A stretch of DNA of 58,045 bases, filler included, from Jimgerdemannia flammicorona (GCA_003990765.1; 3 parts of 3 records of this genome joined end to end with filler, not necessarily neighbours in it); one strand, 5' to 3'; shown: positions 1 to 38,766, counted from the whole stretch's first letter. Notes: a model not told the origin generated them from the sequence alone. Numbers and translations: made by a program.

Positions 1-102
1 AAAAAAAAAAAAAAAAAATAGTAAAGATTGAATTTATCCAATCATCCAAGTTATTCCATCATGGATATTTACTGCCTGAACATGACTCTGCACTCTGTAC
101 AG

Positions 103-282
103 ATCTCTTTGAAACTTCCTGATGGGACCGAGATTTGGGATGAAGATATCGATGCTCGCACTGGAAAGAATGCTATGAGTATAGATTATAACAATGTTTA
201 CAAGACCATTGCTACGGTTCATGGCAAAACTGTCTTGGGGGATATTCCAGGTACAGCCACCTGGATCCATCTGGTCGAATGA
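103..282 (+). CDS. Possible terminal exon of an unidentified gene extending beyond the left edge
   Basis: Acceptor-like ctgtacAG ending at 102, in frame with an open, CpG-containing reading frame (ISLKLPDGTEIWDEDIDARTG...TWIHLVE*). No family recognised. Confidence 0.3.
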   Translation: MSLKLPDGTEIWDEDIDARTGKNAMSIDYNNVYKTIATVHGKTVLGDIPGTATWIHLVE

Positions 283-419
283 AATATTGCTGAGTTCTCC
301 TTTACCCATAATTAAGGGGCTTAAGCTCGAGCATTAAAGCTTTTTTGTATTTGAAATAGCTATGTTGTTTAAACAAGTATTCAACATAACAGAAGAGATA
401 TAATAAATATCATGACTGA

Positions 420-479
<60 letters not shown>

Positions 480-483
<4 letters not shown>

Positions 484-2996
484 ATTTATCTCTTGGTTGA
501 TCTGGTTGGCTTTTCCAATCTTCATCTTCCTCTGGTTCTGAAAGGTAGGGATGGTAGTTTTCTTCTCCAGATATTTCAAAGTATACTTAATCTAGTGAAG
601 TTACTTGAGTTATGACAGTAGTAATATAATCACTTCTGCCTAAATTTCTCCTATAGATTAGAGTCTGGTATTCTTTAGGAAAGTCTTCTGCTAGTTCTAG
701 ACTTTGAGTGGAAATGGGCTCAGGTTGTCCTCTAAGTCTTCTTCTTTCTCTCAAGGTTAAACCATAGTCTGGGTCACTTCTTTCTTCTGATTTAGTTGTT
801 TAGTTATTAGTTCTGAACAGAGTGAGGGCTGTTCTGACAATAGTGTGAGCTTCTTCTTCTGAGGAGGGCAGTTATTGGCCCTGGTCTTATTGCTGACTAG
901 TTTCTCCTGAATTCTCCACTATCAATGACTGCTGGGTTCTTAAGCCAAATGGTCAAGTCTTTAGAAAACTTTCTCAGTTAAGTCTACAAAATATGATGTA
1001 TAATATGTATATCCTGCTTATAGAATGTACTACTTAATATACTACTTAGTTATCCTATATACTGTTTATCTTTTTATCTGGCTCAATATTCAGTTTAACT
1101 GCTGTTTGATTTGTTCATGTTTCTTCTTCACATCAAGTTGGAGTTTATGTATCATTGAAGTTTATATATCATGAGTTATTGGTCATATGACTAGATGTTT
1201 GGAATAGCAAAAGGTAAAAGTATATATGTTGTAGGTTCTGGTATACTGATAGTTATTCTGATGTTCTTAGTAAAGTTTCTTAGTAAGTTAGCAATCTTGT
1301 ATCTTGAATTTCATATAGTCTGAGGTCTTGTATCTGATTTCTATAGTGATAGTTCTTAATTAATTGACTTATATCTTTTTAATAATTTTTGTAGTAGCAG
1401 CAATTCATATTTTAAGTTTTATAATAATTTTCATATCAATTTCTGAGATGGTAAGAGTAATCTCTTAACTCTTAGAGATAGTGTGTTTCTCTGTAAATTC
1501 TTTTTACTTCAAACTATCTGACTGAGATTTATTCACTCTTGTCTTTAGGAGTATTTATATATATTTCTACTATACTCTAGTAGTATGGTCTGAATATACT
1601 ATTGATTTACCAGTGATAGTATATTAGTGGCAAAGACTATACTAATAGAAAACTCTTATTCTGTACTACTGATAAAGAATGTTTAGATAATAGAAGGAGC
1701 TATTCTATATTTAGCTAAACTATAATACACTTATATGGAGAGTAGTACTAACTAAATTAGATAAGACTGAAATATCTTTGTTCTGTTCCACTGATAAAAA
1801 ATGTTGATCTTTATCTTAAAAGATATAGTATTCTTTGCCAGTAGTAAGCAAATCACCTTGTTGAATTGTGACTTCATTATACTACTTTTCAAAGAGGAGA
1901 AGTACTGGTCAAGAGATGAGGGGATAGAATAGTGACCAATCATCTTCAATGATATTTTCTAACTCTTACACAGCTTGAAGATGAACTAAAGACTGGTAGA
2001 TTCTTTATTATTCTTCTTTTTGAGATTTATCAGTTTGGGCATCTTGAGATACTATAGTAGTTTTAATGACAGAGTCTTAGTGTTCTTCTTCTTCTTAGAC
2101 AGAAGCTTCTGAGACTTCTTAGTTTGGTTTTCATATAATATGATGTAATATATAACTAATAGAGTAGTGAGTGGTTATGGTAACTTCTATAGATATTTTA
2201 ATAATAATAGATGGTCTTTTGAAGATTTCCATGAGACTTACTAAATAGTTTTAATGATTGTCTCAGAGAGAGGTAGTATGGAAGCCTGATAGAGTGGGTT
2301 CAGTTTGTTGACTTTCTATAGTAATATGATTACTCCTGATGTAATCAGTAACTTCAGCTTCCATCCAATTGACTTCTTCAGTAGTAAGATAGACTATGTT
2401 TCTAACAATAACTCCTTATAAGTGAGCTATAGCCTAGAGTATATAGTGGAAGATTTTGTAAACATAAAGAGCTCTCTTGATCAGCTAGTTAGTGATTAAT
2501 AGTTCAGCAATAAGGTCTTTCTGATTGTCTTCTTGGGCTTCATTATAGAGATAATATCTAATTTCATAGTCATACTAGAGGGTCATTTAGTCAGTAGTAT
2601 TCTTGAGCTGCTGGGTTATTATATAGTAATAGTTGATGAAATGTCCAAGATCTTCAATATAGAAGTTCAGATACTCAGTAGTTTCAGGGCATTAGATAGT
2701 CATTTTGATAGCTTTAAAGATAAGACTCTTCAGACTTGATAAAGAAATACTATAGTAGGAGATCTGGTTAGAGTAGTGAAAAGGAGATATTATGTTCTTA
2801 TTTATTCTGATTCTTTTTAATACACTAGGTCTAGGTTTATTAAATAATATAACCTTTATTTTAGCTAGGATTATTATTACTCCTTTTGGTCAGATTGCTT
2901 AATAGATTGAGTAGGTCATTAGATAGTATTATCTGATTATTATATTATAAGATTAGAGTTATCATTAATTAAGATAATCATGAGATCTATTATTAT
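480..2996 (-). mobile_element. Heavily decayed transposon/LTR-retroelement relic
   Basis: Nearly devoid of CpG, TpA-rich, stop-riddled. The minus strand around 1100-1200 (ctagtcatatgacc...atatataaac) loosely resembles the LTR at 24700-24790. No domain confidently readable. Confidence 0.35.
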
Positions 2997-3420
2997 TAGT
3001 ACTCTCAATGAATCAAATCAAATCAAATTTGGTCCAAACTCAATTCAATTCGATTGAATCAAGGGTCCAATTTGATTCAATTTGAATCGAATCAAAGGTC
3101 CAATTCGATTCAAAGTTTGATTCAAACCTTAATTTTCAAAATATAATAACTCAATGAAAACCCATCCAAATTTAACATATTTTAGCTTGTTAGATTCACC
3201 ATATTAATGTGATTCTAATAAGCTAAAGTATGTTAGATTTTGATGAGTTTATGCTGAGTTATTGCATTTTGAAAATTAGGGTTTGAATCAGACCCTCAAT
3301 TCAATTCAACTTTTGATTCGATTTGAATTGATTCAAATTAAAAAATCCCCAATTTGATTCAACTCATTTAACCCTCAATTCAATTTGATTTGAATTGATT
3401 TGACTTATTTGGGAGCACTA
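2997..3420. mobile_element. Foldback MITE, hAT-like (424 bp)
   Basis: Imperfect TIRs (TAGTACTCTCAA... / ...TTGGGAGCACTA), 8-bp TSD attattat/attgttat, subterminal attcaatt/tgaatc repeats, and a long internal palindrome (about 3118-3290). Confidence 0.75.
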
Positions 3421-4194
3421 ATTGTTATTACTTCCTTATTCTAGTATTATTAGTTATACATATATATCACAATATTTATAGCTCTCAAAATTATTAGTAT
3501 TACTCAATAAGTTATAGAAAAATAGTAATATATCAGTAAATCTTTAATTATAGAAAATTTCTTTAATAGTATCTAAAATACAATATATATATATATCTAT
3601 TTTAAATTTCTTACTTTAATATATGTATACTAATATAGAACTGAATTCTATAAGCATTTCAAACTAAACAACTTAGTTATTAATAATTAAATATAAAAAA
3701 AAAATAACTAAATTACTATCTATTAAATCTTCTATCTTATAATTACAAAGTATATCTATAAATTATTTAAGAATAATAAATCAGTATTATTTTATTCTAA
3801 AGATATAATTTTCAGAGACTTTAGATATATATAAAGAAATAGTATTAAGAGAAAATAATGATATTGATTGAGTAGTATAAAATAATCAGAGATATACAAT
3901 CTTAGGAGCTTAAATAAATACTTTAAAAACAAAGATAATCTATTCAGAAGAAAGTTATGACATGTGATCAAAATTAGACAAAAATTAGAAAATAGATATT
4001 TAATTACAATATCTGAATTTGATTCCTGATATAGTATTAGATTAAGATAATAGTTAGCTGTCTTCAATTTTGTAGATACTACATATTTTACACTTGTGAA
4101 ATGGTTTATATTTTACAGTTACTATTTTATACTTGTAAAACAAGTAATTGCTATTTTGTAGTTACAAAATGACTTATTATTTAGCTATTGTATA

Positions 4195-4270
4195 GCTAGC
4201 AAAACTTGTATAAATAACTCCAGAATCATGAGTGAATAAACCTCAGATTGAACCAGTTCAGAAAGAACAA
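4195..4270 (+). repeat. LTR-like remnant
   Basis: tataaataactccaga...gagtgaataaacctcag matches the TATA/poly(A)-signal core of the Gypsy-A LTR at 24733-24775. Confidence 0.35.
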
Positions 4271-4559
4271 GTAGTCTGATAAAGAGACCTTCAGATACCA
4301 CTTTGAGCTTATCCTGCAACTGACTCTGGGGGTCAAGAAGACAAGAAATTTCAAGATAAAGAAATCCGACGTACTTTCCAAGTTAAGCGTCCGCTATGTT
4401 ACATTATACATAAATTTCTTCTGACTAATACTAAAGGATGTGTAAGCGCTTCCTAATCCCGCGCAGAACCCTCCAGATATCTTTTCCCGAGGTGTACGCA
4501 ACCTGAAACCGTGTAGGGACTTCTTCCGTTAATAGCCCAGGCCACCGTTCCCCAAACTT

Positions 4560-5160
4560 CTTACAAAACAAATCTCATCTTCGCTCAAGCCACACTACTC
4601 ATCTCCCCACCCTGGCGACTTCGCGCACTTCGCCCATTCAAACTATGTACTTGGACATTTCACCTCTTTCTCGCTGAAGTTATTGCTACCGTACAAACTG
4701 TAAGAATTCTTTATATTACATAGAAAGCAGCTCTTCGAAATGTGTGAATCTTCCTCACTTTACCCCCATGCACTAATGTCAGGCTCGAATGTTGGCCACC
4801 GTAACCCAACCGCCTACTATTCTAAAATATTTCACGATGGGGTTAATCGCTCATACGTCAATGTTGCCAGATAATTTTCCAACTGTAGATTTATGTTCGG
4901 CACGCATTGTCATCATTCCAATTAAAAAAACGGGAAGAGTTAAATCGTGCGATTGTACCTGATACCTATACGCCTCGGGTTAGAATATCAATAGTCTGCT
5001 GGATTTCGCGATAGAGGGACATGTGACAAAAAGGTATATTCCCAAGGGAGTGATGAGAGCCATCTAAAGCGGTTTTGTGATATATAATTGATGAGAATAT
5101 GGAAAGAAGGGCAGAGTTTTCTAAATCATATTTCGAAAAATAAAGTGGCCGAAATAAAAT
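4560..5160. repeat. Flank duplicated at about 16260-16730 (part of the segmental duplication)
   Basis: Shared blocks tcttcgctcaagccacac, tattgctaccg, tttatattacatagaaa, tattctaaaatat, ctcgggttagaat, gatgaga.gccatctaaa, ggccgaaataaaa. Confidence 0.75.
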
Positions 5161-5477
5161 TGTTGAAACTTGTGGATCATAAACGTCAAGTATAAAAATA
5201 CAAGAGTACGATGGGAAAAGCGAGAATTAAATTTTACCAACTTGAAACATAATATATAAACTAGCAAGGGTTGCACAAGTCCCGCAGATGGAGGATAGCT
5301 CACCAAAAAAAACCCCTTCTGAATCGCAGTGGACACATGAAACCATATCCGCACAGCGTTTCGTAATCAATTTTGAGAAATTATCGTACCAAATATTTAA
5401 TTTCATTCTTATACTGAAAGTACAAATTTGCTATAAGCAGACTATGGTAGTTACAAACTTGCTGTAAATACTATAAG

Positions 5478-6738
5478 CTACAAAAATATAGCATGATCAG
5501 AAGATGGTGGAACAGCAATCCATACTTTAGATTTCCAGTGTATCGCGCCCTTTTCATCGGTATAACAAATGCCAGGAAAGCAGACAACTTGCTTTTCTGA
5601 CGAAGTAAATCTAATCTCAAATGATTTCCCATTGTTCCTGTTGTATGTAGATGAGATGGCCGATTTTCGGTCACACAAGATGAGCTTACCAGAGACTTCG
5701 ATCATATCGTCGACTAGTGCGTCAAATTGTTTTTGCGCCCCATCATGTTGATTGATCTTCAGGAAACTTTCTCGAAGATCTAAAAATGGTTTCTGCTTGG
5801 ATGCTTTTTCATGTATTTGCTCTCTGAGATCTTGTTCGAGCATCTTGTAATTTGACTGCAGTACACCTATAACGAACTGTATGTTGGTTGGAGATACCTT
5901 TACGTCGAACATGGATTCACGGATGGTTTCGATTCGGCTCTTGATGATATTCTGAGTCGCACCGAACACACCCGTCATATTAATGGACAATAGTTCGCCG
6001 TTCTTGGCATTATCCTCGAAGAGAAACAGGCTAAGCCATCGTTGTCTATGGTCATAGAAGATATCATACATATATATATATTTAAAATGCTGGAAATTAA
6101 ATAAAAAAGCAATGGGAAAAAAAGCTAGTAACGTACTTACCGAAGACTATCAAATTTTTTCAACACAACGCTAAGATTCCAGGCTTCGAAATCAGTTCCA
6201 ATAACAGTTACACGCAATCTGTCTCTGTCTTCCTTTAAGATATCGTTATCCTTCCGCAACTGGCTGGCCTCACTCCGCAATCTGCCGGCCTCACTCCGCC
6301 AATGCTGAACCTCCTTCTGCAACTGCTTAATATCCTTCAGAGCTTCGGAATAGTCATGCTAGTTCATAATGAAGTTACTTACAATAAGTACTTATCCCAC
6401 AAATTAGAAATTTCTGTCAATGTCAATTTTTAGAAGAACTCGTACTTTCGAAATTTATGTTTTTGTTAACCTACCTCTAGTCTCTCCCTACGTTCAGTTT
6501 CATCCCCATATCCTATGGCGACATTTTTCAGAAATTTTACAACCTCGTCCATTTTATCACGTGTTGACGCGGCAGTAATAGTATTGTCTTGAACTTCAAC
6601 TACTAGCTTTTGAGGCTCGCTAATGTTGCAAAGAATATTAAGATATCTGTAAGTAATGGAGTGACGATAAGCAACACAATGAATGAACTCCACTTACGCG
6701 ACTTGCGGAGAGCTTCTTTGATTAGATGAATGCTGCAT
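5478..6738 (-). CDS. Coiled-coil Hsp70-partner protein, copy 1 (323 aa; C-terminus Mieap/GIL1/GrpE-head-like)
   Basis: Exons 6738-6698, 6619-6475, 6358-6141 and 6045-5478 (972 nt, in frame, GT-AG introns with phases conserved in all three copies). Heptad segment HDYSEALKDIKQLQKEV...LKEDRDRLR; C-terminus VVCFPGI...WKSKVW. The gene model is well supported; the family assignment is inference. Confidence 0.85.
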
Positions 6739-7301
6739 CTTTTCAATATACTTCAGTCCTCCACGACATATATCTATTTATGTGCCGGATTTCAGCCTAA
6801 ATGCAACAGCCCCAAAGACAACCTATTTCAGTTGTTATCGCTTATTGTGCCAAGTCTTGTGAATTAATTATAAGAAAGCTTCTATGAGGAAGAACTTTGT
6901 ACCACACGGGTTCCTATGAGAATTTCAACTTTATTAGCACAAACACTTTGTAATCACATTATGCAATCTTTCGAATCTGATGACTGACCATGGCAGTACA
7001 CATCCGAGCTTTTAGGCATTTGTGTTCCAGATTCTGCACGGTAAGGTTCGCATGAATGCATATTATGCATTATGCCAATCTTTACCTTTGGGGCTCTGGC
7101 AATAATCTCTCGCTCAATGAATTTAGTATATAGTGACGACTGTTTGTGTTCCGTGCTCAAAAATCCCAAGAGTGGGGTAAAATCCTCCGCATCCGTGGTC
7201 ATGTATATATATATGTAACAATAAATTGTCCATGCCTAGTTAGGACCACCATATGTTTAAAATCAAATTATAATCTCAGTCTCATTCATACTTTTACGAA
7301 A
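6739..7301. promoter_or_regulatory. Bidirectional promoter region, unit 1
   Basis: 563 bp between divergent start codons, with motif blocks conserved in units 2 and 3. Confidence 0.6.
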
Positions 7302-9502
7302 ATGCCTCGCAAGACTAAAGCCAAGAACACCACCACAGTGAAAAACACCACTACAGTCAAGAGCACCACTGCAGTCAACGCCACCACTGGTGTTTTCCGC
7401 AATATACTCAAGCCGAAAACTTATGGCTTTATCTGTGCCATAGATTTTGGTACAAGTGGTACGGGGTTCTGTTATGCAGTCTCTAATAATGGCACAATAG
7501 ATGACAAACGAGACATTATCCCGAACCCTGACTGGCATGTATTGTTAATTTTGAAGTTGCGTTTAAGTTATCCGCTTTCAGATTCGCTAACTAATATTTC
7601 TTTCTTGTTAGGCCGGGTAACCAAGAGCGTGGCAAAACGAATACCTCCATCATCCTTGATAAGACAACCAATGCCTGTATCAAATTTGGCACGGAAGCCA
7701 AATATGCCGCCCGCGACTACGCTTTCAACGAAAGCGACAGATTCTTTGAGCTGTTCAAGATGCAGTTATATGAGCATATTCCAGGCACCCCTTTTATCGT
7801 TAAGGACGCGGCAAGCGATGGAATCGATGCTATGATTGTTTTCAGAGAATCATTACGCTTTATAAAAAAAGGTATTGCTTTATATATATATATAAACGAA
7901 AATCTACGACGTGTATGTAAACTGTCTGCTAATTTTATCGAAATTAGTATTTTTTGAACACCTCAGAAGGAAAAACGTTTCCTGCTCTGAGATGGACGTC
8001 TTCTGGGTGTTGACCATTCCTGCAATTTGGGACGACGCCGCCAAGTTACTAATGCGTAAAGCTGCCGTGGCTGCTGAACTGGAGAAAGAAGACGGTCAAC
8101 TGGTACTCGCATTGGAGCCGGAAGCTGCATCTCTCTGGTGCCTCGCAAGTGGAGGAATCTCTTTGAAAAAAAAAGATGTCTATATGGTCGTCGATTGCGG
8201 TGGCGGTACTGTGGATATCACGATCCATGAAGTAGAGCGAGCGGACGAGCGATGCCCACGGGTGAAAGAAGGTATGTATAGTGGTGTCTGTTTTGTATTC
8301 ATTATGTGATTTTTTTTGGCATGTCTAAATTTGAGGTGAATCTTTTAATTCACCAGTTGCGCCTGCCAGTGGTGGAGCCTGGGGATCAACCAGCATTGAT
8401 CGTTGTGTGTTCAAATTGTTTGAAGACGTTTTTGGACGCAACCGATACAATCAAATGATGAAAGATTCCCTTGGTCATATACAACTTCAGGATGACGTTG
8501 AGAGAGCCAAATGCTCGTTTAACGGCGAAATCAATCCTGTCATCCAACTTCCTGATTCACTCTTGAATTCGACGAAGAATGATTTGGACACACCAAACCA
8601 AGCTGTCAGCAATTACAACCGAATAAATCAGGCAAGGCTTCAGTTGAAAGGTAAGCTATTTCATAGTATGCATATGTATTGACCATTTACTTTTTTTCTT
8701 CTTCTATTTATGTTCTGACATTGTATATGCATTCTACAGGATCAAACCTTCTAATTCCAGCGGCGATATTCTCGGAAATCTTCAGTTCTGCGATACGCTC
8801 GATCTTAAATCACGTGAATGACCTCTTGGTGAAATATGTCAACGTCAAATACGTCGTGATGGTGGGAAACTTTACCAACTGCATTCCATTACAAAAGCAA
8901 ATGGAGACTCTTTTGGACACATTCAAAATCAAGTTAATTATCCCAGATCAACCGGGCGATGCAATTATGAAAGGTGCTGTAATCTATGGGTTAGATTCCT
9001 CTTCTGTTACCTCCCGACGTGCCAGGAAAACCTATGGTGTGAGTGTGTTTGAAAGTTTTAACGATATGAAGCACCCCATAGAGCGGCTTGTGATCAGAGA
9101 TGGAAAGAGGTCTTGCGCAGGTGTGTTTGACCCATTTGTAAAAAAGAATCAGATAATTCCTTCGGGCCATATTGTGGAGCGTATATACCAGAAGGGGGAT
9201 AATCAACAAACAGAGATGGTAATACGGATTTTAGTCTCCGACGAAGACGAATTTCCACAATTTTCCGATCACTACTCTGTAAAGGTTATCGGAATACATT
9301 CAATCAACATTCCAATGAAAGGAACCGGAAGGTAAGATTTTATTAATTTTTTTATCATTTATTTCGTTTGAGTGACCTGACTTTAATACAATCTCGTTCG
9401 TCTAGAATTACTACGGGAATGCTATTTGGCAACACAGAACTTCGTTGCAAAAGTGTAAATGAGCTGGGCGAGGAAGTGGAAACCGCTTTGGTTTTGACAT
9501 GA
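7302..9502 (+). CDS. Atypical Hsp70 family protein (HSPA12-like), copy 1, 599 aa
   Basis: Exons 7302-7534, 7612-7871, 7948-8271, 8357-8650, 8740-9331 and 9406-9502 (1800 nt, in frame). Motifs AIDFGTSGTG, FKMQL, WVLTIPAIW, LALEPEAAS, VVDCGGGTVD, SGGAWGSTSID, SRRARKTYG and FGNTEL. No EEVD tail or helical lid. Confidence 0.93.
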
Positions 9503-11622
9503 ATGTTCGAGCTCGGTGGCGATGTTGTACATATAAATAGTCTGCAATAAATTGTCGGCACCCGACTGTAAATCATTTTTACTATGTAAAGTGTGCTCAA
9601 GTATCTGATATTTATTTAAAAAGAAAACCGCCCCCTTTTTTTTTTGTGTTCTCTCTGGTTCGAATCGTTGGTCTGCATAGAAACCAACCCTAAATTTCAA
9701 TATCGTTATATCGTTTATTCTGATGCCACAACAAAGCTGCAAAAGTATATACTCCGCCAAGGAGTACCAATCCGGGAATTTTCAAGTCATCATCTCCGTT
9801 CCACTTGTAATAGACTAATATGGATGTGGTTGGTGCACATGATAGTGTGAGATCGAACCTGCTCGCGTCACTAAACTCCAACCAAATAATGCAAATAATG
9901 GGGGAGTTTCACATCCGTCTGTCAAACATTACAGGCTAAAAGGCAGTCGGTCGGGTTACCCATCATTTTTGCCACCTCGCAGGCTGGGCGTTATTCCGAA
10001 AGTAGCAGTAAGATCTGAGAAATATTCTATCTCCGATTTCGAACCGCAGTCTATTCACACACCCACGTATCCACTATAGGGTCAGTGCAGGGTCCTGTGC
10101 GTTTGGTATGCCCCAAGCGCAATGGGCTCTCCATTTTCAAACATCGGAACGTATATTTTCGTGAGAGCTATTTGTATGACATAATTAGAACCAGCGCGGC
10201 TTCCGAGACAACAGCCTTCTGGTCATGCGACCGCATGGTATGGGGGTTTGTAACCTTGTTTTTATTTTTGTGTGTATAGAATAAACAAATGTGTGGCTCA
10301 CGATGTTGTGTTATAAATCGCGGGTACGCATTCAACAATAATTGTATATATAATTATATATGCCATGTTTGAAAAGGACACGTCCTCATAATATAAACAC
10401 TATACTAAGGATCATAATGGTGTAAATACAGGAATTGGCACAAAACCTCAACCATGTATGATCTATTGTACAAACATTGCGACCATTTTTATCATCATTC
10501 ACAATTATGTTGACACGGTAAGGCCTATTGTGCATTAAATGCTAACACCTTCACTGTGCTGGTACCCTGCATAGTTTCGTCATGTTCCAAATAACAAAAT
10601 GGGCATAGTTTGATAGACAGGAGAGCTCTGATGCCTTTTCTGTGTAAACGAGGGAAACGCCCACTGGTGGAGGCTGAGGGTTTCGACCCCCTTGGAAACA
10701 TAGAACTGGTTGAATTTGTAACCGAAGGGAATGTTGGAAGCTTGGGATTGGCTGTACGCCGGTAAGAAATGGTATTTCGTATGTCATCTGGAGGTGAAAT
10801 GGCGAGCAAACTATCACAGGTCAGACGTCGCTCACCTAACTGAGGATCACGCAAGCGAGAGCATTAGGAGGGGAGTGGGTGTCAAAATACCTTATATGGT
10901 GCGGAATGTATAGGACGGAGGCAAGCGCTTGTGATGAAATGTGATGATCTCAATAAAAACAATAAAAATAAAAATAAAAAAAAGATCAATAAAAACACTA
11001 TGGAAAACGAATACATAGGCGCGATGGGAGTTGGTTGTTCGGTGAAAACCCACTTGTAAGGGAGAAGATATAGATGACAGAAAGTGGGAGAAAAAGATAG
11101 ATTGAGGAGATGTAGGTTTGTGTAGCGTAGAATACAGGTATTTAGCGAGCAAAGGCTGCAGGGAGTTTATTTTTTTCCCTTTCCCCCTTTTCCCTCTTCT
11201 CCGGCTAACCCATCCTATGCGATTGTACCTGGTGGCTTTGGCAAATCTCTGCAGCAAAGGTATAACCTAGTAAGGGTCGCCCAGGCCTGAGGGTGGAGTA
11301 TAGCCCGCTAGATTACAAAAAATAAAAAAAAAAAGTCTCTGGATCGCAGAGAACCAAATAGACACAGATTTAACCGTATAAAAAAGACCTTGGCACCGTA
11401 CATTGAGTACTATTCAGTATCTGCGTCATACATTTAAATACATGTATGTACCAAGTGTATCATATTGTGATGTGATTTATGATGCGTGGCCATTTGTGCT
11501 TGCACAGAACCGATCAAACAAAGTAGCGCTCAGCCACCGAAACAGTATATATTTTCAATCCTAAACTGAATGTACAAACAGGCTATACTGGTTACAACCT
11601 GAATAAAAACTTGACTACAAAA

Positions 11623-12770
11623 CTATTTTGCAAGACGAGGTCGAGTGGCAACCCATACTTTGGATTTCCAGTCAGCCCTACCATTTACATCGATTGAACG
11701 AATGCCAGGAAAGCAGATAACTTGTTTATCTGCCGAAGTGATCACAATCGTATACGCTGTCGTATCGTGCCGGTCAAAATCATGTGAAATAGTCAATTTT
11801 TGGTCACACAAGAAAAGCATACCGGAGATTTTGATCATAGTGTCGAATAGTGCGTCAAATTGATCTTGATTAGATATCTCCAGGAAACTGATTTTAAGAT
11901 CATCGTGAGCTTTCTCCTTGCGTGCTCTTTTACGTATTCGCAATCTGAGGTCCGATTCAACCGTCTTGTAATTTGACTGGAGTACACCTGTGATGAACTG
12001 TATGTTTGTTGGAGATTCCTCATAGTCGAACATGTGCTCACAGACCTCTTTGATTTGATCCTTGAGGAGCTTTTGAGTTTCTCTGAACACAGACTCCATA
12101 CTAGCCGTCAATAGTGAACCGTTCTTAGCACTATCACCGAAGAGATACAGGCTAAGCCATTGTTGTCTATGGTCATAGAAGATATGATGAATTTTTTTAA
12201 AAATAATAACTGGAAATTAAGTCAAAAAGAAACGGAAAAAATAGCCAGTAATTATACTTACCGAAGACTTTCAAATATTTTCAATACAGCACCAATACTC
12301 CAGGCTTCATAATCGGAACCAATAACAGTAGCACGTAATTTGTTCATTTCCTCCTTCAAGAGAGCATTTTTCCTCTTCAAATCTTCTATTTCTTCCTGAG
12401 CTTCTGAATATTGATGCTAGTTCATAATATAGTTACGATAAGTACTTATTCAGAACAACCCGTGCTTTCGAAATCTTTTTTTTATTTTATTTTTTTTGGT
12501 TAACCTACCTCTAATAGCTGCCTCCGTTCAGTTTCAACCCCATATCTATTGAAGATATCTATCAGATGATTCACAAAACCATCCCTTTCACCGCTTATCG
12601 ACGCGGCAGTGATAGCATCGTCTTGAACTTGCTCAGACACTGGCTTTTGAGACTCGCTAATGTAATAATAAAAGATATCCATAAGTAAAGGAGTGACAAT
12701 AAGCCGCATGATGAGTTGATTCAACTTACCCGACTTGCGAATAACTTCTTTGATCAGTTGAAGGCTGCAT
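11623..12770 (-). CDS. Coiled-coil Hsp70-partner protein, copy 2 (295 aa)
   Basis: Exons 12770-12730, 12656-12509, 12416-12262 and 12166-11623 (888 nt, in frame). Same intron phases as copy 1; SPTNIQF.TGVLQSNY and VICFPGI...WKSKVW conserved. Confidence 0.85.
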
Positions 12771-13325
12771 ATTTTCAATATATTTCGGTCCTCCGCGACA
12801 TACTTATATTTATGTGCCCAAATGGAAAAGCCCCGAGACATAATTCATTTCAGTTTTTATCGCTTATAGTACCAAGTCCTGTGAATTGATTATAAGGAAG
12901 AACTTTGTACTACTCGGCATCTGGTTCCTATGCGCATTTCAACTTTATTAATATATAAACACTTTGTGATCACATTATGCAATCCTTTTTGATAAACAAT
13001 GTAAGCATAACAATGATGTAAGCTGGTGGCTGACCATGGCAACGACCAAACAGAAGAGTACACAATTGTGTTCCAGTCTACATGGTAAGGTTTGCATAAA
13101 TGTATATTATGCATTGTGCCAATCTTTACCAGCAATAATCTCTCGCTCAATGAATTTAGTAGATAGTGACAATTGTTTGTGTTCCACGATCAAAAAATCC
13201 CAAGAGTGGGGTAAAATCCTCCGCATTCGCCCATGTAACAATAAATTGTCCATGCCTGGTTAGGACCATCACATCTTGGGTATAAGCTTAAAATCACAAG
13301 TCTCAGTTTCACATTTTTTGCGAAA
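12771..13325. promoter_or_regulatory. Bidirectional promoter region, unit 2
   Basis: 555 bp between divergent ATGs; homologous to 6739-7301. Confidence 0.6.
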
Positions 13326-13848
13326 ATGCCTCCTCACGAAACACACGAAGTCAAGAACACCACCTCTGGTGTTTTCCGTAATATACTCAAGCGAAAAACG
13401 TATAACTTCATCTGTGCCATAGATTTTGGCACAAGCGGTACAGGATTCTGTTATGCAGCCCCCAACGAAGGTGCAATAGATGCCAAGCGAGACATTATCC
13501 CCAACCCTGACTGGTACGTATTGTTATTTTTGAAACTGCATTTATGTTATTCAGATTTGATAACTAATATATCGGCCTTGTTAGGCCGGGTAACCAAGGG
13601 CGTGGCAAAACGAATACTTCCATTATCCTTAATAAGACAACCAATACCTATATCAAATTTGGCACGGAGGCCAAATATGCCGCCCGCGATTCTGCTTTCA
13701 ACGATAAAGACAGATTCTTTGAATTGTTCAAGATGCAGTTATATGAGCATATGCCAGACACGCCGTTTATCGTCAAGGACACAGCGAGCAAAGAAATAGA
13801 TGCTATAATCGTTTTCAAAGAGTCGCTACGCTTCATAAAAACAGGTAT

Positions 13849-13885
<37 letters not shown>

Positions 13886-15491
13886 TAATGGAAATCTACA
13901 CTGCGTTGATAATCTGTTGATTTGACTTGAAATTAGTATTTTTTGAACACCTCAGAAAGAGAAATGTTCCCTGCTCTGAGATGGATGTCTTCTGGGTGGT
14001 GACGATTCCTGCAATTTGGGACGACGCTGCCAAGTTGCTAATGCGTGAAGCTGCTGTTGCCGCTGAACTGGAAAAAGAAGAAGGTCAACTTATGTTCGCA
14101 TTGGAGCCAGAAGCTGCATCTCTCTGGTGCCTCGCAAGTGGAGGAATCTCTTTGAAAGAAAAAGATGTCTACATGGTCGTCGATTGCGGTGGCGGTACGG
14201 TGGATATCGCGATTCACGAAGTAGAACGAGCTGACGAGCGACACCCACGGGTGAAAGAGAGTACGTGTGACATTGTTCATTTTGTATAAATTACATGATA
14301 TTATGTCTGTCTAATTCTGAGATAAATCTTTTAATCCAACAGTTGCGCCTGCCAGTGGTGGAGCCTGGGGATCAACCAGCATTGATCGTTGCGTGTTCAA
14401 ATTGTTTGAAGAAGTTTTTGGTCGCAACCGATACGATAAAATGATGAAAGATCCCCTTGGTCATACGCAACTTCAAGATAACGTCGAGAGAGCCAAATGC
14501 TCGTTCAATGGCGAAATAAATCCTGTCATCCAGCTTCCTGATTCACTCTTGAATTCGACGAAGGATGATTCGGACACACCAAACCAAGCTATCAACAATT
14601 ACAACCGAATAAATCAGACGCGGCTTCAGTTAAAAGGTTAGGCTATTTCATAGCGTGCATTAACTGTTTTTTCTTCTCCTTTTTTCTTTTTTTTTAAGTT
14701 CTGACATTCTGTATGTATTTCACAGGCTCAACTCTTCTAATTCCAGCGGCGATATTCTCGGAATTCATTAGTTCTGCAATACGCTCGACCCTAAATCACG
14801 TGAATGACCTCTTGGTGAAATATAGCAACATCAAATACGTCGTGATGGTGGGAAACTTTGCCAACTGCGTCCCATTACAAAAGCAAATGGAGACTCTTTT
14901 GGACACATTCAAAATCAAGTTAATTATCCCAGACCAACCGGGCGATGCAATTATGAAAGGTGCTGTACTTTATGGGTTGGATTCCTCTTCTGTTACCTCC
15001 CGTCGTGCCAAAAAAACCTATGGTGTGAGAAAGATTACAGCTTTTATCGATGGGGAGCACCCCGTAGAGCGGCTTGTGATCAGGAGTGGACTGAGATTTT
15101 GCTCAGCTGTGTTTGATCCATTTGTACAAAAGAATGAGACAATTTGTTCAGACCACATCGTGGAGCGTAAATATAAGAGGGCGGAAAAGGAACAAAAAGA
15201 GATAATAATACAAATTCTAGCCTCCGACGAAGACGAATTTCCACAATTTGCCGACCACTACTCCGTAGAGGTTATCGGAAAACATACCGTCAATATTCCA
15301 ATGAATGGAACTGGAAGGTAAGATTTTATTTTCGGGGGGTTTTTTTTTTCGTTCGAGAAACCTGATCCTATTATAATCTCGTTCGATTGTCTAGTATTAC
15401 TACGGGAATGTTATTTGGTGACACAGAACTTCGTTGCAAAAGTGTAAATGATCTGGGCGAGGAAGTGGAAACCACTTTAGTGTGGACATGA
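13326..15491 (+). CDS. Atypical Hsp70 family protein (HSPA12-like), copy 2, 584 aa
   Basis: Exons 13326-13513, 13585-13844, 13937-14260, 14343-14636, 14726-15317 and 15395-15491 (1755 nt, in frame). Exons 2-6 are identical in length to copy 1 and carry the same motifs. Confidence 0.93.
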
Positions 15492-15517
15492 ATGTTTGCA
15501 ATAAGTTGTCGGCGCTG

Positions 15518-15552
<35 letters not shown>

Positions 15553-15849
15553 TGCGCTCTCTGGCTTGAATCGTTGATCTGCATGTAAACAAACCCAAAT
15601 ATGAATATCGTTATATCGTATATTCCAATGCCACAACAAAACTGCAGAAGTACTCCGCCACGGAGTACCAAATCCGGGAAACGAGGTCACCATCCCATTC
15701 CACTTGTCCATCTAGATACCTAAGAAAAATGCTCTCTGATCCATCTGATACAACGAACCCCTATAACAAATAATCCCATTGACTTCAATATGCCAACACT
15801 AATCCCTTCTTGACAATAAAATCCATCACATCCGCCCTCCATACCATAT

Positions 15850-16145
15850 ACCAGCCACTTCTCTAGTATGCAGTACTTGTCGGCATGGTCCCTGTTCGCA
15901 ACAGCATTGGCCTGACGAGCCCCAACCTCGATGGCGATCCCGATATTGTACAGTAGGTAGGGAATATCCCTCTTGTGCTCGCCGATGTCTATGGATGAGA
16001 TGAAGCGCTTGGGGATGTCGGCGATGCCTTCCACGCAAATCGCACCATCCCGGATCTGAAATTTAACAGCCTAAACTCGACGCAAGACCTCGTCAATAGT
16101 ATTAAGGAAGCAACTTACCTTCATATCTTCTCAACAATTCACCAT
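15850..16145 (-). pseudogene. Isolated GC-rich exon-like gene fragment of unknown family
   Basis: Donor gtaagt at 16118 and acceptor tttcAG at 16056, then a C/G-ending codon-biased frame IRDGAICVEGIADIPKRFISSIDIGEHKRDIPYLLYNIGIAIEVGARQANAV...EKWL. No complete gene recoverable. Confidence 0.35.
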
Positions 16146-17081
16146 ATTTTTTTGTTTTATGGTTCGCTGGCAGAACATCCCGTCAACAAGGGGTATTTAT
16201 ACAGGTTGCCACAGAAAGGACCGGCTGAAAGAATAATTGAACACGTGCCACATATAAAAACTATAAAAACAAACGCCGTCTTCGCTCAAGCCACACAACT
16301 CACCTCCCCATTCTCACAACTACCCATTCAAACCAGGCACCAACACATTTCACACCTTTCTCACCAAATCTATTGCTACCGCACAGTTTGTAGGTATCCT
16401 TTATATTACATAGAAAACAGCTTATCAAAATGTATGAATCTCGCGCTTACTTTACCATCTTGCAGCCCACAACCACCTAACTATTCTAAAATATCTCATA
16501 ATGGAGTTGGAGGTAGCGTAACCGCTCATATATGAATGCCCTCCAACTGTAATTTATTGGCTTTGGCAAATAAAGAACATCTCGGGTTAGAATGACACGC
16601 GTCTGCTTGATTTCGCACATATTTTCGGGGAATGATGAGATGCCATCTAAACTTTTTTTCTATGGAAACGATGACAATAAAAAAAAAAATGGAAGAGGCC
16701 CAAGAAAGAGGCCGAAATAAAATTGTGCAGATAAACTACAGGAGCACGATAGGTTAAATGTGATCAACTTGGAGTTATTCCAGTATATAATATATAAACT
16801 GGTAAGGGTCGCCTAGGCCCTGAGGGTGGAGGAAAGCCCACTGGATCGCACAAAAAAGAAGGAAAAAGAAAAAAAGCCCTCCGAATCGTGGAGACACAAA
16901 TATAACCGTGGCTGCACAGGACCAGTTTCGACGTGATCAAGTTTGCCCAAACAGCAGCACACTGGGAATAATCATATCAAATATTTAAACTCATTCTTAT
17001 ACTGAAAGTACAAATGAAATATAGGCAGACTATGCTGTTTACAAACTAAATAAAATCTTGACGAAAAAAATAAAAATAAAC

Positions 17082-18263
17082 CTATGAATATGTAGCCCGA
17101 TCGGAGTGTGGTGGAATGGCAATCCATACTTTGGATTTCCAGTCAACCACACCATTTTCATCGGTTGAAGAAATGCCAGGAAAGCAGACAGTTAGCTTTT
17201 CTGACGAATTAATCACAATCTCGAACGTTTCCTTATCGTTTGGGTTGTATGCACGTGAGAAAACTAACTTTCGGTCACACAAGAAAAGCATACCAGAGAT
17301 TTTGATCATATCGCTGAATAGTCCGTCAAATTGTTTTTGCGCTACTTCACGTTGATTAGATTTCATTAGGAAACTAGCTGAAAATTTTAAGAACACTGGG
17401 TCTTGGTGTGCTATTTCACGCATTCGCTTTCTGAGGGTCTCTTCAAGTGCCGTGTAATTTGACTGCAGTACACCAGTGACGAACTGGAAGTTTGTTGGGG
17501 ATTCCTTGAAGTCAAATAAGTATTCACGGATTGTTTTCATGTGACTATCGAGAATATTCCGAGTCACGATGAACACAGATTCCATATTCCTGGTCAACAG
17601 TTCGCCGTCCTTGGCATCATCATCGAAGAGAAACAGGCTAAGCCATTGTTGTCTATGGTCATAGAAGATTTCATATAATTTTTTTTTAAAAAATCGCTGG
17701 AAATTAAATCAAAAAGCAAAATAGCTAGTAACGTACTTACCGAAGATTATCAAATTTTTTCAACACAAAACCAAGGTCCCAGGCTTGAAAATCACTACCA
17801 ATAATAGTGGCGCGTAATTTGTTCATTTCCGCCTTCAAGAGAGAATTATTATTCTTCAGCTGTTGGATTTCTTTCTGAGCTTCTGAATATTCATGCTAGC
17901 ATAATAAAGTTACTTACGATAAGTACTTATCTCATAAATTGGAACTTTTGTCAAAATCAATTTTCAGAATAACTCGTGCTTTCGATTTGTTAACCTACCT
18001 GTAGTAACCGAGTCCGTTCAGTTTCTCCCCCATATCTAGTGAAGACATTTTTCACATAACTTACAACACCATCCATTTCATTACGTATTGACGCGGTAGT
18101 AATAGTATTTTCTTGTTCAACCTCTGGCTGTGGAGACTCGCTAATGTTGCAATGAATATATAAGATATCCGTATGTAATAGCGTGACAATAAGCAGCACA
18201 ATGAATGTATTTCACTTACACAACTTTCGGGCGACTTCTTCGATCAGAAAAACTCTTCATCAT
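17082..18263 (-). CDS. Coiled-coil Hsp70-partner protein, copy 3 (302-303 aa)
   Basis: Exons 18263/18260-18220, 18140-17999, 17895-17741 and 17652-17082, in frame, with the same structure as copies 1 and 2. Confidence 0.85.
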
Positions 18264-18744
18264 TTCAATATGCTTCAGTTCTCCGCGACATACTTATATA
18301 TATATTTATATGCCGAACTTCAGCCTAAATGCAACTGTCCTCGAGACACAATGACATTTCAGTTATTGCTTATTGTGCCAGGTCTTGTGAATTAATTATT
18401 AGAAATATTCTACAAGGAAGAACTTTGTACCACACGGCGTTGGTTTTTTCACACTCCGAGGCAAATTGTGTACCCAAATGTTTCGGAAAAGCTCGGATAA
18501 AATGCTATGCATTATGCCAACCTTAACTTGTTAGCTCTGGCAATAATCTCTCGCTTGGTAATAATGACAGTTGTTTGTGTTCCATGATCAAATAATCCCA
18601 AGAGTCGGGTAAATTCCTCTGCATACGTGGTCCGTGGTCATGTACGAGCGTACATGTACTCATACCCAGTTAGGACTACCTCATCTCGGGCATAAGCTTA
18701 AAATCGCATTGTAGTATTAAGTCTCATTCATACTTTGTGTGAAA
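18264..18744. promoter_or_regulatory. Bidirectional promoter region, unit 3
   Basis: 481 bp between divergent ATGs; homologous to units 1 and 2 with internal deletions. Confidence 0.6.
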
Positions 18745-19264
18745 ATGCCTCCTTACGAAAAACGTGAAAACACCACCACTGGTGTTTTCCGCAATATACT
18801 CGAGCGTAAAACTTATAGCTTTATCTGTGCCATAGATTTTGGCACGAGTGGTACGGGGTTCTGTTATGCAGTCCTTAAGAATGGCAAAATAGATGCCAAG
18901 CGAGATATTATCACGAACCCTGACTGGTATGTCTTTCTATTTTTGAAAACTTCGTTTAAGTTATTCGCTTTCAGATTTGCCAACTAATATTTCCGTCTTG
19001 TTAGGCCGGGTAACCAAGGGCGAGGCAAAACAAGTACCTCCATCATCCTCAATAAGACAACCAATGCCTATATCAAATTTGGCACGGAAGCCAAATATGC
19101 CGCCCGCGACTACGCTTTCAACCAAAGAGACAGATTCTTTGAGTTGTTCAAGATGCAGTTATATGAGCATATGACAGATACGCCGTTTATCGTCAAGGAC
19201 ACGGCAAACAATGGAATCGATGCTTTGATCGTTTTCAGAGAGTCATTACGCTTCATAAAAAAAG
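18745..19264 (+). CDS. Atypical Hsp70 (HSPA12-like), copy 3, 5' part only (cut by assembly gap)
   Basis: Exons 18745-18926 and 19005-19264 (AIDFGTSGTG, FKMQL). Intron 2 runs into poly-T and Ns. Confidence 0.88.
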
Positions 19265-19284
19265 GTATGGTTTTTTTTTTTTTT

Positions 19285-19384
19285 NNNNNNNNNNNNNNNN
19301 NNNNNNNNNNNNNNNNNNNNNNNNNNNNTTAATTAATTAANNNNNNNNNNNNNNNNNNNNNNNNNNNNNNNNNNNNNNNNNNNN
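19285..19384. other. Assembly spacer
   Basis: N44-TTAATTAATTAA-N44, an artificial six-frame-stop linker. Confidence 0.98.
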
Positions 19385-28700: not shown

Positions 28701-31514
28701 CCAACCACCTCCATTTCCCAACCCTCCTATAACCCCCTATCCTCTAACAAGGAAGAATTTAGCTGCTAATGTCCAGGCCCATCCTCATTTCCCCCAAACC
28801 TCCCCCCTCCAAGCAGCCCCCAGTGATCAGACCACAGACACCAAACACTTCCAGCACCAACCAGACATCTGCTCCCCAACACTCCACTGTCAAAACCCAG
28901 TCAATGCTAGAGCCCAGCCCTGCTGCCCAGTGGGTGTACACCTGTCAATCAGCCCAAAAATGTCTTCCTGAGTCCACTAAAGAACTCAACCTCTCTGTCT
29001 CCAACCAGTCACCCAACCTACCACTTTCACCCCACATGCCTCTCCCTCTATCTGTTCTATCCATCTCCTTATCCCAGACCATATTGAAGTCACCCCCCAT
29101 ATAGTCCAGCCCAACTTCTCCCAATACACCAGCCTCTTTCAATCTGTGAATCCAATCCACCCTCTCCCCTCTCTCAGCTGGGCAGTAGCAAGACCCAACT
29201 GTCAGCGAGCCCCATCCAGGCCTCTTCCACACTCCCCACACCACCCAAGACCCCCAATGTCCAATGTCCTCAATGTCCCCTATCCCTTTCCGAACAAGAA
29301 TACACACTCTCCCCCTCCATACTGCTGCACCCCCCCATTCCTTAGTCCAATCCTGTAAGTTCACATCTGCCTCATAACAAACATCCTGTAACAAGAAGAG
29401 GTCTGCATCCAGTCCCTTAAGCCATCCAAATATATACTTCCTTCTAGCCGCCCTCCATAACCCATTAATGTTCAATGAGAATATCCTAGTTGTACTGTTC
29501 ATATTGAATAAATGTTGCAATAGAGACCCCATCCTAGAATTCCATGCTCATCTCATCCTCAGCCAGATCCAAGCACTGTTCAGCTTCTAAGTCACCCTCC
29601 GCATTAGCCTGAGCATCCAGTGCCTCCAAGATTTCCTGACATTCCACCCCATCCACTACCTCTATATCTGACTGATAATCTAAGCAGACTGTGTGCTACT
29701 TCTCCAGTCCCTTCCTCAAGTTCTACAAGAATAGTGCCCTGTCACTTACAATCCTCCTAAGTTCCTCCTCCCTCTAATCATTGACTTGATATTCAACCGA
29801 CTCCAGGAGAATAGCCAGGATCTTGTTTCTCATCTTCCTTGACACCTCCTCCCCCCATAGGATCTCCTCCCAATGCCTTTCTTCCATCACCCTGAAATCC
29901 TCACCCCCCAGCTCTTCAGCCACCACCCCTTCCAGGGTCTTCCACATCTACTTCTCCTCATCCACCACCTCCACCACACTCTGAGTAATTTGTCCCCCAT
30001 CTACCTTGGGGTCCACTAGCATGCTCCTCTGCACTGACTCATCCCACTCCTCATCTGGTACATCTAGCAGCTCCTCCTCCCCCTCAGCTCCATCTGGGAT
30101 ACTATACTGGGGGTGCACACCTTCGCTCATATCCACATCTGCCTCCATATTGCCTACCCTCTCCACCTCCACTCCCAGCTGAGCCCCACTCTGGGTCCTT
30201 TCACCCCCCTCAGCCCAGGCACTCTCCTGCAATCCTGCACCCCTCTCCCCTGAACTTCCACTGGCCCTACCCCTACCCAACCTCACCAGCAGCTCCTTCT
30301 GGATTTTCCTCCTCTGCAACTTCTCCCAGGCCCCCTTCTCCATTCGGACCCTCTTCCCATCCACCTCCCCCACCACCATCCTGGCCTCAAACTCCTTCCA
30401 TGCCAATCTCCTCCTCACGACCGCCCCTTCTAGATCCTCTAGAGCCTCCAACAGGTCTTCCTCCTCCTCCTGGGTCCCCTTCACCCTCATGACCTTACAC
30501 TCCACCAGTCCCCACCTCAGTATCGCTGGCCAGTCCCTCGACTTCCCCATACTCTCCCTTCTGGCCAGTCTCACCCTGACATCAACGTCACCAGTCCAAA
30601 GCTCCGTACCCTCCCAGACCTTGAACCCAACATCCACAATCTCTCCATACTCTCTGATCGCCTCCACAACCAACTCCCTGGTCCTCTCCTTCAACACCAT
30701 AGGGAGATCCAGCACTGTCAACTGTACCACTCAGGGGTCCCAGTGCATACACCTGGTCATAGGGACGACAACTTCGCCAACTGTCACCCCCTTCTCCAAG
30801 GCTACCAACAAGATGTCTTCCTTCTCGAACCCCACCTTGACCCCTTCCTTCTCCTTCAAAAACTTCACTGATGCCACTCCCTTTGCCTCCTGCACCACCA
30901 GCTCCAAAATCATCCTTGCCGTCACTGCCAAGCCCTGGAAACACATTGTGACTGTGAATTCTGACCTCGACTTCTTGAGTAACAGGGCCGACACCATGTC
31001 TGTAACCCCATCTGCCAGATCCCGGGGCCTCATGCCCACTCCCCATCCTGAATTATCAACTGTCATCACATCTGGATTTTTTGCCAGATTCCCAGTTACA
31101 GCCCCATCACCAGTCACATCTCCAGCCCCCCCTCAGTAACTCCCCTGAGTGCACCTCCCAGACCCCCAGCAGTAGCTGTTGATGCCTTCCCCAGGTCCAG
31201 CCAACCATCTAGACCTGAGGCCATCTTCCCCATTCTGACCTTGTCAGCAAAGGTCAACCTCTCCCCTCCTCTCTGCCTCAGACTGCCCCTCCCTCCACCA
31301 CCAGGACTATGGCTAGCCATCACGGCCCCTGGCATCTCCAAACCATCTCCCCTCCTTCCCACCTGCTGCCAGCCAAAGGCACCATCTCCCCCCTAGTCAG
31401 TATGCTTACCAGTTTGATCATTGCCATCCATGTCAATAGTCGTTGGATACCAAAAATATAGTAAAAAGTGTTGTCTGAGTCTTGTATCACCTGAATATTA
31501 CTGGTGAAAGATGA
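25759..31514 (-). mobile_element. Full-length degenerate Tx1/L1-group LINE (ORF1 about 31360-29534; ORF2 APE-RT-zf-RVT 29502-25992; poly(A))
   Basis: APE SLNINGL, LFLLQD and GGDFN; RT WKNWRPIMLLDMD, PQGDPL and AFADD; C-terminal C..C...HWLSEC; AATAAA and poly(A) at 25760-25775. The 5' end catctttcaccagtaatattcag is shared with 41683 and 47146. Confidence 0.92.
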
Positions 31515-38666: not shown

Positions 38667-38766
38667 NNNNNNNNNNNNNNNNNNNNNNNNNNNNNNNNNN
38701 NNNNNNNNNNTTAATTAATTAANNNNNNNNNNNNNNNNNNNNNNNNNNNNNNNNNNNNNNNNNNNN
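38667..38766. other. Assembly spacer
   Basis: N44-TTAATTAATTAA-N44. Confidence 0.98.

Follow-up and report, generated by a model that had tools for sequence, protein, structure and literature searches.

A tandemly triplicated, head-to-head gene pair in Jimgerdemannia flammicorona encoding an HSPA12-type Hsp70 and a candidate coiled-coil cofactor

Why should an Hsp70 gene stand head-to-head with a gene for a coiled-coil protein, three times in succession? The question is raised by a window of 58,045 nucleotides (the whole stretch of DNA that was analysed) from the fungus Jimgerdemannia flammicorona (Endogonales, Mucoromycota), in which positions 1-19284 are one whole contig that holds all six genes. 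Hsp70s of the HSPA12 type range from bacteria to humans. Here, the plus-strand genes are identified as HSPA12-type Hsp70s, and each minus-strand gene encodes a near-orphan protein, hereafter the partner, whose models show a coiled coil and then a helical/beta domain. The explanation favoured here, to which we give about an even chance, is a tandemly triplicated divergent pair of an HSPA12-type Hsp70 ATPase and its own dedicated coiled-coil cofactor.

Families of direct repeats recur three times along the contig, at spacings of 5973-6133 and then 5413-5490 base pairs (bp), and the locus consists of three tandem units of 5.4-6.1 kb, in each of which a partner gene on the minus strand stands head-to-head with an HSPA12-type Hsp70 gene on the plus strand. 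The ATG-to-ATG distances within the pairs are 563, 555 and 481 bp in units 1, 2 and 3, respectively. Spliced models were built by hand and then carried between units by alignment, which gave the following genes (lengths in amino acids, aa) and intergenic regions:

5478-6738, minus strand: partner gene 1; exons 6738-6698, 6619-6475, 6358-6141 and 6045-5478; 323 aa; own model
6739-7301, no strand: divergent intergenic region 1, 563 bp; long blocks kept in all three units
7302-9502, plus strand: Hsp70-1, HSPA12-type; exons 7302-7534, 7612-7871, 7948-8271, 8357-8650, 8740-9331 and 9406-9502; 599 aa; own model and alignment to P0003/P0004
11623-12770, minus strand: partner gene 2; exons 12770-12730, 12656-12509, 12416-12262 and 12166-11623; 295 aa
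12771-13325, no strand: divergent intergenic region 2, 555 bp
13326-15491, plus strand: Hsp70-2; exons 13326-13513, 13585-13844, 13937-14260, 14343-14636, 14726-15317 and 15395-15491; 584 aa
17082-18263, minus strand: partner gene 3; exons 18263-18220, 18140-17999, 17895-17741 and 17652-17082; 303 aa
18264-18744, no strand: divergent intergenic region 3, 481 bp
18745-19284, plus strand: Hsp70-3, exons 1-2 only; exons 18745-18926 and 19005-19264; contig ends inside intron 2

Exon boundaries are homologous in position and equal in phase across the copies (four exons per partner gene, six per Hsp70 gene). Partners 1-3, Hsp70-1 and Hsp70-2 are intact; Hsp70-3 is interrupted solely by the contig end, so its stop within intron 2 is no biological border. 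An earlier note on this DNA had proposed three consecutive head-to-head units with intact complete models and conserved intron phases, and this is borne out by the repeat spacings, the spliced models with their spacers of 481-563 bp and the annotated partner lengths, with a GC donor in Hsp70-1. The note had also stressed that the two genes were always duplicated together. The whole segment is indeed repeated, but the 5.4-6.1 kb repeat unit contains the spacer too, so joint duplication of both genes is trivial.

The locus is also present in a second J. flammicorona assembly, on a 20,594-bp contig with tags BC936DRAFT_141054 to 141059, and partner lengths of 323, 295 and 303 aa are equal in our models and in the annotations of the two assemblies. 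Partner 1 differs from P0001 (hypothetical protein BC936DRAFT_141059) at 5 of 323 residues, partner 2 from P0002 (BC936DRAFT_141057) at 1 of 295, and partner 3 is identical to P0010 (RUS32544.1, BC938DRAFT_475120) over all 303. For the Hsp70s, 7 of 566 aligned residues differ between Hsp70-2 and P0004 (BC936DRAFT_141056), and the 147 residues of Hsp70-3 encoded here are identical to P0003 (BC936DRAFT_141054), which is complete at 581 aa in the sister assembly. Two public models are shorter than ours, P0004 by 18 aa (Hsp70-2) and P0005 by 22 aa (partner 3, also relative to P0010), shortfalls that probably reflect differing annotated introns and not real deletions. A fourth, partial partner paralogue (P0009), whose C-terminal part departs from the family, lies elsewhere in the J. 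flammicorona genome, on a 6,528-bp contig.

That the plus-strand genes encode HSPA12-like Hsp70s, as the same note had suggested, is confirmed by scores against PF00012 of 29.0 and 31.1 bits for P0003 and P0004 (cut-off 20.6) and by ESM Atlas neighbours, the first of which is a 'heat shock 70 kDa protein 12A-like' entry (score 0.98, 215 of 256 features shared; a lead-grade result from a tree-free method). Among solved-structure chains, the nucleotide-binding domains (NBDs) of DnaK and mortalin match the Hsp70 over residues 164-328 with an expectation (E) value of 1.2e-7. The motifs DFGTSGTG, EPEAAS and DCGGGTVD are readable in all Hsp70 copies and presumably stand for their canonical Hsp70 counterparts. 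There is no EEVD, as the Hsp70 C-termini end in ...LVLT or ...LVWT; furthermore, profile and solved-chain matches end near residue 330 of 581 and no canonical substrate-binding lid was recognised in them. DUF8340 (PF27033) is precomputed for the C-terminus of P0004 and was unreported for P0003 and P0004 by hmmscan at E ≤0.1. A 2026 review (PMC13580251) describes the helical lid as absent from HspA12A/B, the function of HspA12 as unknown and its mechanism as untested, and reports tens of HSPA12 copies in bivalves.

Does the partner bind the Hsp70? Complex prediction was run on one cognate pair, that of unit 3 (P0003 with P0010), together with three controls, and returned ipSAE values of 0.70, 0.69 and 0.73 vs 0.00 for the best of the three controls. 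Of 78 solved complexes, 51 reach the ipSAE mark, against 2 of 108 mismatched pairs; for eukaryotes only, the figures are 39 of 65 for solved and 2 of 126 for unrelated pairs. At least 53% of the contacts are common to the runs, and the predicted local distance difference test (pLDDT) score of the partner is at least 69. The predicted interface comprises residues 83-126, 221, 260-263, 285-287 and 295 of partner 3 and residues 25, 43-68, 156-160, 305-319, 351-358, 423 and 426 of the Hsp70. The partner stretch 83-126 is the end of the coiled coil plus the first helices of the following domain and is comparatively conserved. Hsp70 residues 305-319 align to DnaK 268-282, which we take, from assumed subdomain limits, to be the part of lobe IIB where nucleotide exchange factors act. 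Judged from these models, it is fairly likely that the partner binds the Hsp70.

A second line of evidence comes from bacteria. A degenerate DNA pattern for the DCGGGTVD motif of the window identified at least 120 loci and, among the matches listed, relatives of the fungal Hsp70 are encoded at 76 of 120, many of them at 25-31% identity over almost the full length. Wide flanks were taken for 10 bacterial genomes containing 11 HSPA12-type genes, and in 10 of the 11 a partner-family coiled-coil open reading frame (ORF) lies directly downstream on the same strand, as seen in ORF maps and by profile search; this frequency is biased because the loci were picked through a motif. A bacterial partner profile made from seven of the ten ORFs recovered the other three, with E values from 1.7e-27 to 6.6e-45. 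The one gene without such a neighbour is in Oscillatoria (L129, G005:C3:381097-382386), a second HSPA12-type homologue within a 952-aa ORF that may be a fused form; no partner-family gene follows it. Nine more actinobacterial 4-kb loci gave weaker matches to the partner profile (E 6e-8 to 4e-4), at least eight of which are directly behind the Hsp70 gene by coordinates. The complex prediction (0.70 vs 0.00) and this adjacency (10/11) together strengthen the earlier idea of a dedicated partner.

The bacterial partners consist of a coiled coil and a C-terminal domain that ends in DPP...F....HE....G.....YPGY......KA.VFT. One of them, from Nostoc (L125), scores above the Pfam cut-off for MIEAP (28.6 vs 27 bits, E 1.7e-6), and of the 10 PDB matches of the bacterial partner-domain profile two are to GrpE chains, but with E values of 0.9-1.2, which are not significant. 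In Calothrix (L124, 3933-4811) the partner-family gene behind the Hsp70 gene is in two ORFs, 4521-4811 and 3933-4517, and therefore a frameshift or stop is suggested. A third gene is often found upstream of the Hsp70 gene in the bacterial module (loci L125, L128, L124, L130, L131 and L133): in Nostoc it encodes a DUF4407 protein, and those of Trichodesmium, Scytonema and Parabeggiatoa encode proteins of 303-682 aa that have a C-terminal motif in common. Some module loci also adjoin large double-AAA+ ATPases or a dynamin-like GTPase.

The fungal partner itself belongs to a very small family. A phmmer search of 1.84 billion representatives returned six matches, namely three J. flammicorona proteins (including the partial fourth paralogue) and three short proteins at 36-42% identity, and a profile search of 5.8 billion proteins returned seven, adding a full-length relative of 317 aa from a JGI metagenome in which the partner architecture is complete at 44% identity. 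A metagenome scan with the partner alignment produced 293 pattern matches, none of which was confirmed. AlphaFold2 models of the partner (pLDDT 66 and 67) have a long coiled-coil helix, a bundle of five or six helices and a small, poorly resolved beta region. When residues 112-303 were searched against ESM Atlas structures, a MIEAP (PF16026) cluster came out best, with a template-modelling (TM) score of 0.65 (by query) over 169 aligned residues, a match that falls under the search's own bar for naming a family and is taken as a lead only; GrpE clusters in the same search reached TM 0.34-0.35. Another of the structural neighbours in the Atlas is a family from Basidiomycota, 57% of whose members have a GTPase domain. 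Foldseek against the PDB gave a best E of 0.2 and thus no convincing solved likeness, and PDB fold searches gave neither a MIEAP match nor a GrpE match to the C-terminal domain. From the models, the C-terminal domain of the partner is probably a very divergent MIEAP-type domain, and the chances that the fungal partner is homologous to MIEAP are about evenly balanced.

How the two genes have evolved since the triplication is readily measured. Among paralogues, protein identity is 82-84% for the Hsp70s and 54-57% for the partners. The rate of nonsynonymous substitution (dN) is 0.08-0.10 for the Hsp70s and 0.27-0.31 for the partners, about three times as high; synonymous rates (dS) are 0.25-0.39 and 0.37-0.48, and dN/dS is 0.21-0.39 and 0.60-0.84, respectively, below 1 in all three partner comparisons. 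Between copies, identity is 71-77% in exons 2-4 of the partner genes but 79-91% in the introns of these genes and 81-85% in the intergenic DNA; the Hsp70 genes are reversed, with exons (84-92%) above introns (67-85%). The partner pattern fits very weak constraint plus some positive selection, or else constrained short introns and promoters, which are imperfect neutral yardsticks because they may themselves be constrained. Length differences between partner exons are all multiples of 3 and those between introns are not; therefore, the reading frames have been maintained. Two repeats are confined to copy 1: a 21-nt x2.2 repeat at 6253-6299, with which the coiled coil of partner 1 is longer by 21 residues, and an 18-nt x3.4 repeat at 7322-7389, which gives a KNTTTV-like repeat in the N-terminus of Hsp70-1.

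A known system to which the pair can be compared is DnaK-GrpE, an Hsp70 with its nucleotide exchange factor (solved complex 1DKG). In both, an Hsp70-fold ATPase goes with a coiled-coil protein that has a small beta-rich tail; the predicted fungal contacts are on the NBD and include the stretch aligned to DnaK 268-282; the bacterial relatives of the pair are adjacent same-strand genes, read as co-transcribed; and the profile of the bacterial partners has weak matches to GrpE chains, with the E values given above. In contrast to GrpE, the fungal partner is not matched by the Pfam model of GrpE, has low Atlas similarity to GrpE and contains a multi-helix domain of about 140 residues between coiled coil and tail, and the fungal Hsp70 is HSPA12-type, not DnaK-type, with no J-protein encoded in the unit. 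The MIEAP proteins (PF16026; animal Mieap/SPATA18) resemble the partner in having an N-terminal coiled coil followed, as in the fungal protein, by a C-terminal domain of about 190 residues, in being its best structural neighbour in the Atlas and in that the product of one cyanobacterial gene, which directly follows a gene for an HSPA12-type Hsp70, scores above the MIEAP cut-off; they differ in that the fungal partner lacks a Pfam match and is not significantly similar, profile to profile, to the MIEAP-positive bacterial family. Animal HSPA12A/B and their bivalve expansions are of the same atypical Hsp70 class, a family prone to tandem expansion, with the tens of bivalve copies noted in the review (PMC13580251), whereas each fungal Hsp70 gene has a divergently transcribed partner gene, of which none is described for animals in the openly accessible literature.

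On these grounds the following mechanism is proposed. The partner would dock on the Hsp70 with the conserved terminal part of its coiled coil, with the helices that open the C-terminal domain (83-126 in partner 3) and with its C-terminal beta tail. It would lie across the nucleotide cleft of the NBD, in contact with the IA/IB side and with the hairpin of lobe IIB. Once docked, it may govern the exchange of nucleotide, or link the ATPase cycle to a client or a site in the cell, much like GrpE on DnaK; such a role in nucleotide exchange or regulation is, on the models, a tentative assignment that we hold to be possible and somewhat doubtful. The fungal pair would be one form of an old module, whose bacterial form would be an operon of an HSPA12-type Hsp70 gene followed by one for a coiled-coil partner with a MIEAP-like/GrpE-like tail. 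The triplication would go back to tandem duplication of the entire segment, after which the Hsp70s would have remained under purifying selection and the partner protein sequences would have diverged about three times faster.

Several results weigh against this proposal. The ipSAE mark is also passed by 7 of 44 blindly drawn neighbouring gene pairs, so the pass is not decisive, and since DnaK-GrpE complexes are solved, the pair may have passed through resemblance. Residues of the predicted interface are not significantly more invariant among the three paralogues than the rest (19 of 36 vs 100 of 256, p = 0.15). As to homology, Pfam returned only coiled-coil noise and no domain for all seven members of the fungal family; none of the seven matched PF16026 at a maximum E of 10 (HMMER filters drop most matches above about 0.1), and GrpE (PF01025) came up neither in Pfam nor when a profile of the fungal family was run against the PDB at E ≤10. 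Only two of seven bacterial partners match MIEAP at E ≤1, and a Pfam MIEAP search of five bacterial genomes placed the partner gene above the cut-off in just one. Aligned by hhalign to three bacterial partner alignments, the fungal partner gave E values of 0.12, 0.36 and 0.17 in the C-terminal domain, each with a probability below 1%; the register is equal in two of the three runs, with CD opposite DPP and FPGI opposite YPGY. A fourth run, with the first bacterial alignment, matched the coiled coil only (probability 12%, E 0.0024). The fungal partner profile found three weak matches in five bacterial genomes, none of them at the partner gene, and hmmsearch with filters off over 3,329 ORFs of the bacterial loci reached no lower E than 1.4, and that in coiled-coil segments. 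By sequence comparison, then, the case for homology of the fungal partner with MIEAP, GrpE or the bacterial partners is weak and not significant. Finally, the donor of predicted intron 1 in Hsp70-1, at 7535, reads GC (GCATGT) where copies 2 and 3 have GT (GTACGT and GTATGT); either the intron is of the GC-AG kind or decay has begun here.

A first alternative is that the genes are coincidental neighbours, in which case the partner is a young, lineage-restricted orphan that has a bidirectional promoter region in common with the Hsp70 gene and was copied along with it, without physical or functional coupling. Such an orphan would be expected to have a tiny family (six matches in 1.84 billion representatives, seven by profile search), no Pfam domain, a near-neutral dN/dS of 0.60-0.84 and no significant homology to the bacterial partners, and a repeat unit that takes in the spacers allows co-duplication without selection. 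Nevertheless, coincidence is unlikely, as it does not sit well with an ipSAE of 0.70 vs 0.00 for controls at a mark reached by 2 of 108 mismatched pairs, yet by 7 of 44 blind neighbours; with three partner ORFs that are intact with in-frame indels only at a dS of 0.37-0.48; with a JGI metagenome relative that keeps the full architecture at 44% identity; with the MIEAP-like predicted structure; or with a MIEAP-positive partner family behind bacterial HSPA12-type genes. If the two proteins do meet, the partner might be client rather than cofactor, a self-assembling MIEAP-like scaffold or condensate former whose assembly state is controlled by a dedicated Hsp70. Animal Mieap is reported to form condensates, and the coiled coil followed by a MIEAP-like domain, the one-to-one gene ratio in all three units and the predicted binding would all agree with this; however, the predicted contacts are on NBD lobes (43-68, 305-319 and 351-358) and not on the C-terminal region expected for a substrate, and the tail of the bacterial partners has a weak GrpE-like similarity, so that a client relationship appears distinctly improbable.

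The remaining alternative is conflict or non-self recognition, with the fast-evolving partner as recognition or effector part, the Hsp70 as guard or activator, and diversification driven by an arms race or by allorecognition. It would account for partner exons that are less alike than their own introns and intergenic DNA, opposite to the Hsp70, for a partner dN about three times that of the Hsp70, for tandem amplification of the pair, for the double-AAA+ ATPases or dynamin-like GTPase beside the module in some bacterial loci and for the GTPase-rich Basidiomycota family among the structural neighbours. The earlier note had leaned this way, inferring diversifying selection and possibly a non-self recognition, guard or toxin-antidote role, and these parts of it are not supported. 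Partner dN/dS is below 1 throughout, even if partner exons are nonetheless more diverged than introns and intergenic DNA, a contrast that uses the imperfect yardsticks described above. High allelic divergence was not found between the two assemblies, whose partners differ at 5/323, 1/295 and 0/303 residues, Hsp70-2 at 7/566 and Hsp70-3 at 0/147, and this near-identity argues against allorecognition-like polymorphism, as far as two strains of unestablished kinship allow. Pfam found no HET, NLR, HeLo or similar death or recognition domain in either the Hsp70 or the partner, nor a NACHT, TIR, nuclease or toxin domain, and PADLOC returned nothing for P0003 and P0010 and only coiled-coil noise at 13 bits (JetC and LmuB) for P0001, so no toxin or defence component is recognisable. 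Conflict is therefore rated as very unlikely, and the dedicated Hsp70-cofactor pair is retained as the preferred explanation.

The surroundings of the six genes add the following features:

4565-5459, no strand: left flank, edge of the repeated segment; two fragments, 4565-4772 and 5379-5459, similar to the spacer between units 2 and 3
9503-11622, no strand: spacer 1; no gene recognised; resembles spacer 2 in short stretches only
15492-17081, no strand: spacer 2; parts reappear as the two left-flank fragments listed above
19285-19384, no strand: artificial contig-joining linker N44 TTAATTAATTAA N44; the DNA beyond is another contig

Apart from its two fragments, the left flank is rich in AT and has no convincing ORF, and tblastn found no further copies of either gene, decayed or not, elsewhere in the window. 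The island had been described as bordered by decayed repeats, which is only in part true, given the two spacer-like fragments on the left; no decayed gene copy exists by tblastn, however, and the right edge is the contig end. Within the divergent intergenic regions, nearly invariant blocks are common to all three, for example around 7105-7125 and 7140-7195, and no heat-shock elements were found in them at ≤1 mismatch; therefore, regulation other than by the classic heat-shock response is likely. Artificial linkers (N44-TTAATTAATTAA-N44) at 19285-19384 and 38667-38766 join three contigs into the window, so that adjacency of any DNA past 19284 to the locus is not established. The remaining two contigs (19385-58045) are repeat-rich, with a GC skew reaching -0.55 at 26-31 kb and +0.55 at 33-45 kb, have segments of 67-81% identity in common and contain retroelement-like ORF fragments, among them an endonuclease-like one at 28948-29547 and a zinc-knuckle gag-like one at 54239-55168.

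No description of an HSPA12 partner, of a functional link between MIEAP and HSPA12 or of the J. flammicorona locus was found in the openly accessible literature. What the locus adds is a fungal, head-to-head, triplicated and strongly diverged Hsp70/partner pair with a passing complex prediction. A linked partner that is predicted on the NBD is a testable candidate helper for the HSPA12 family, whose function is unknown, and three diverged pairs at one locus provide a test set for interface co-evolution. A wider proposal, which is on present evidence unlikely, is that MIEAP-type proteins are the missing cofactors of HSPA12-type Hsp70s, acting as GrpE-like exchange factors in a module that runs through bacteria, fungi, amoebae and animals, with Mieap/SPATA18 serving HSPA12A/B in the last; the three co-evolving cognate pairs in J. 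flammicorona would then be a natural specificity panel. The Mieap family is p53-regulated, and the MIEAP link, if true, would tie this animal family to the HSPA12 class of Hsp70s, two groups that are unconnected in the openly accessible literature.

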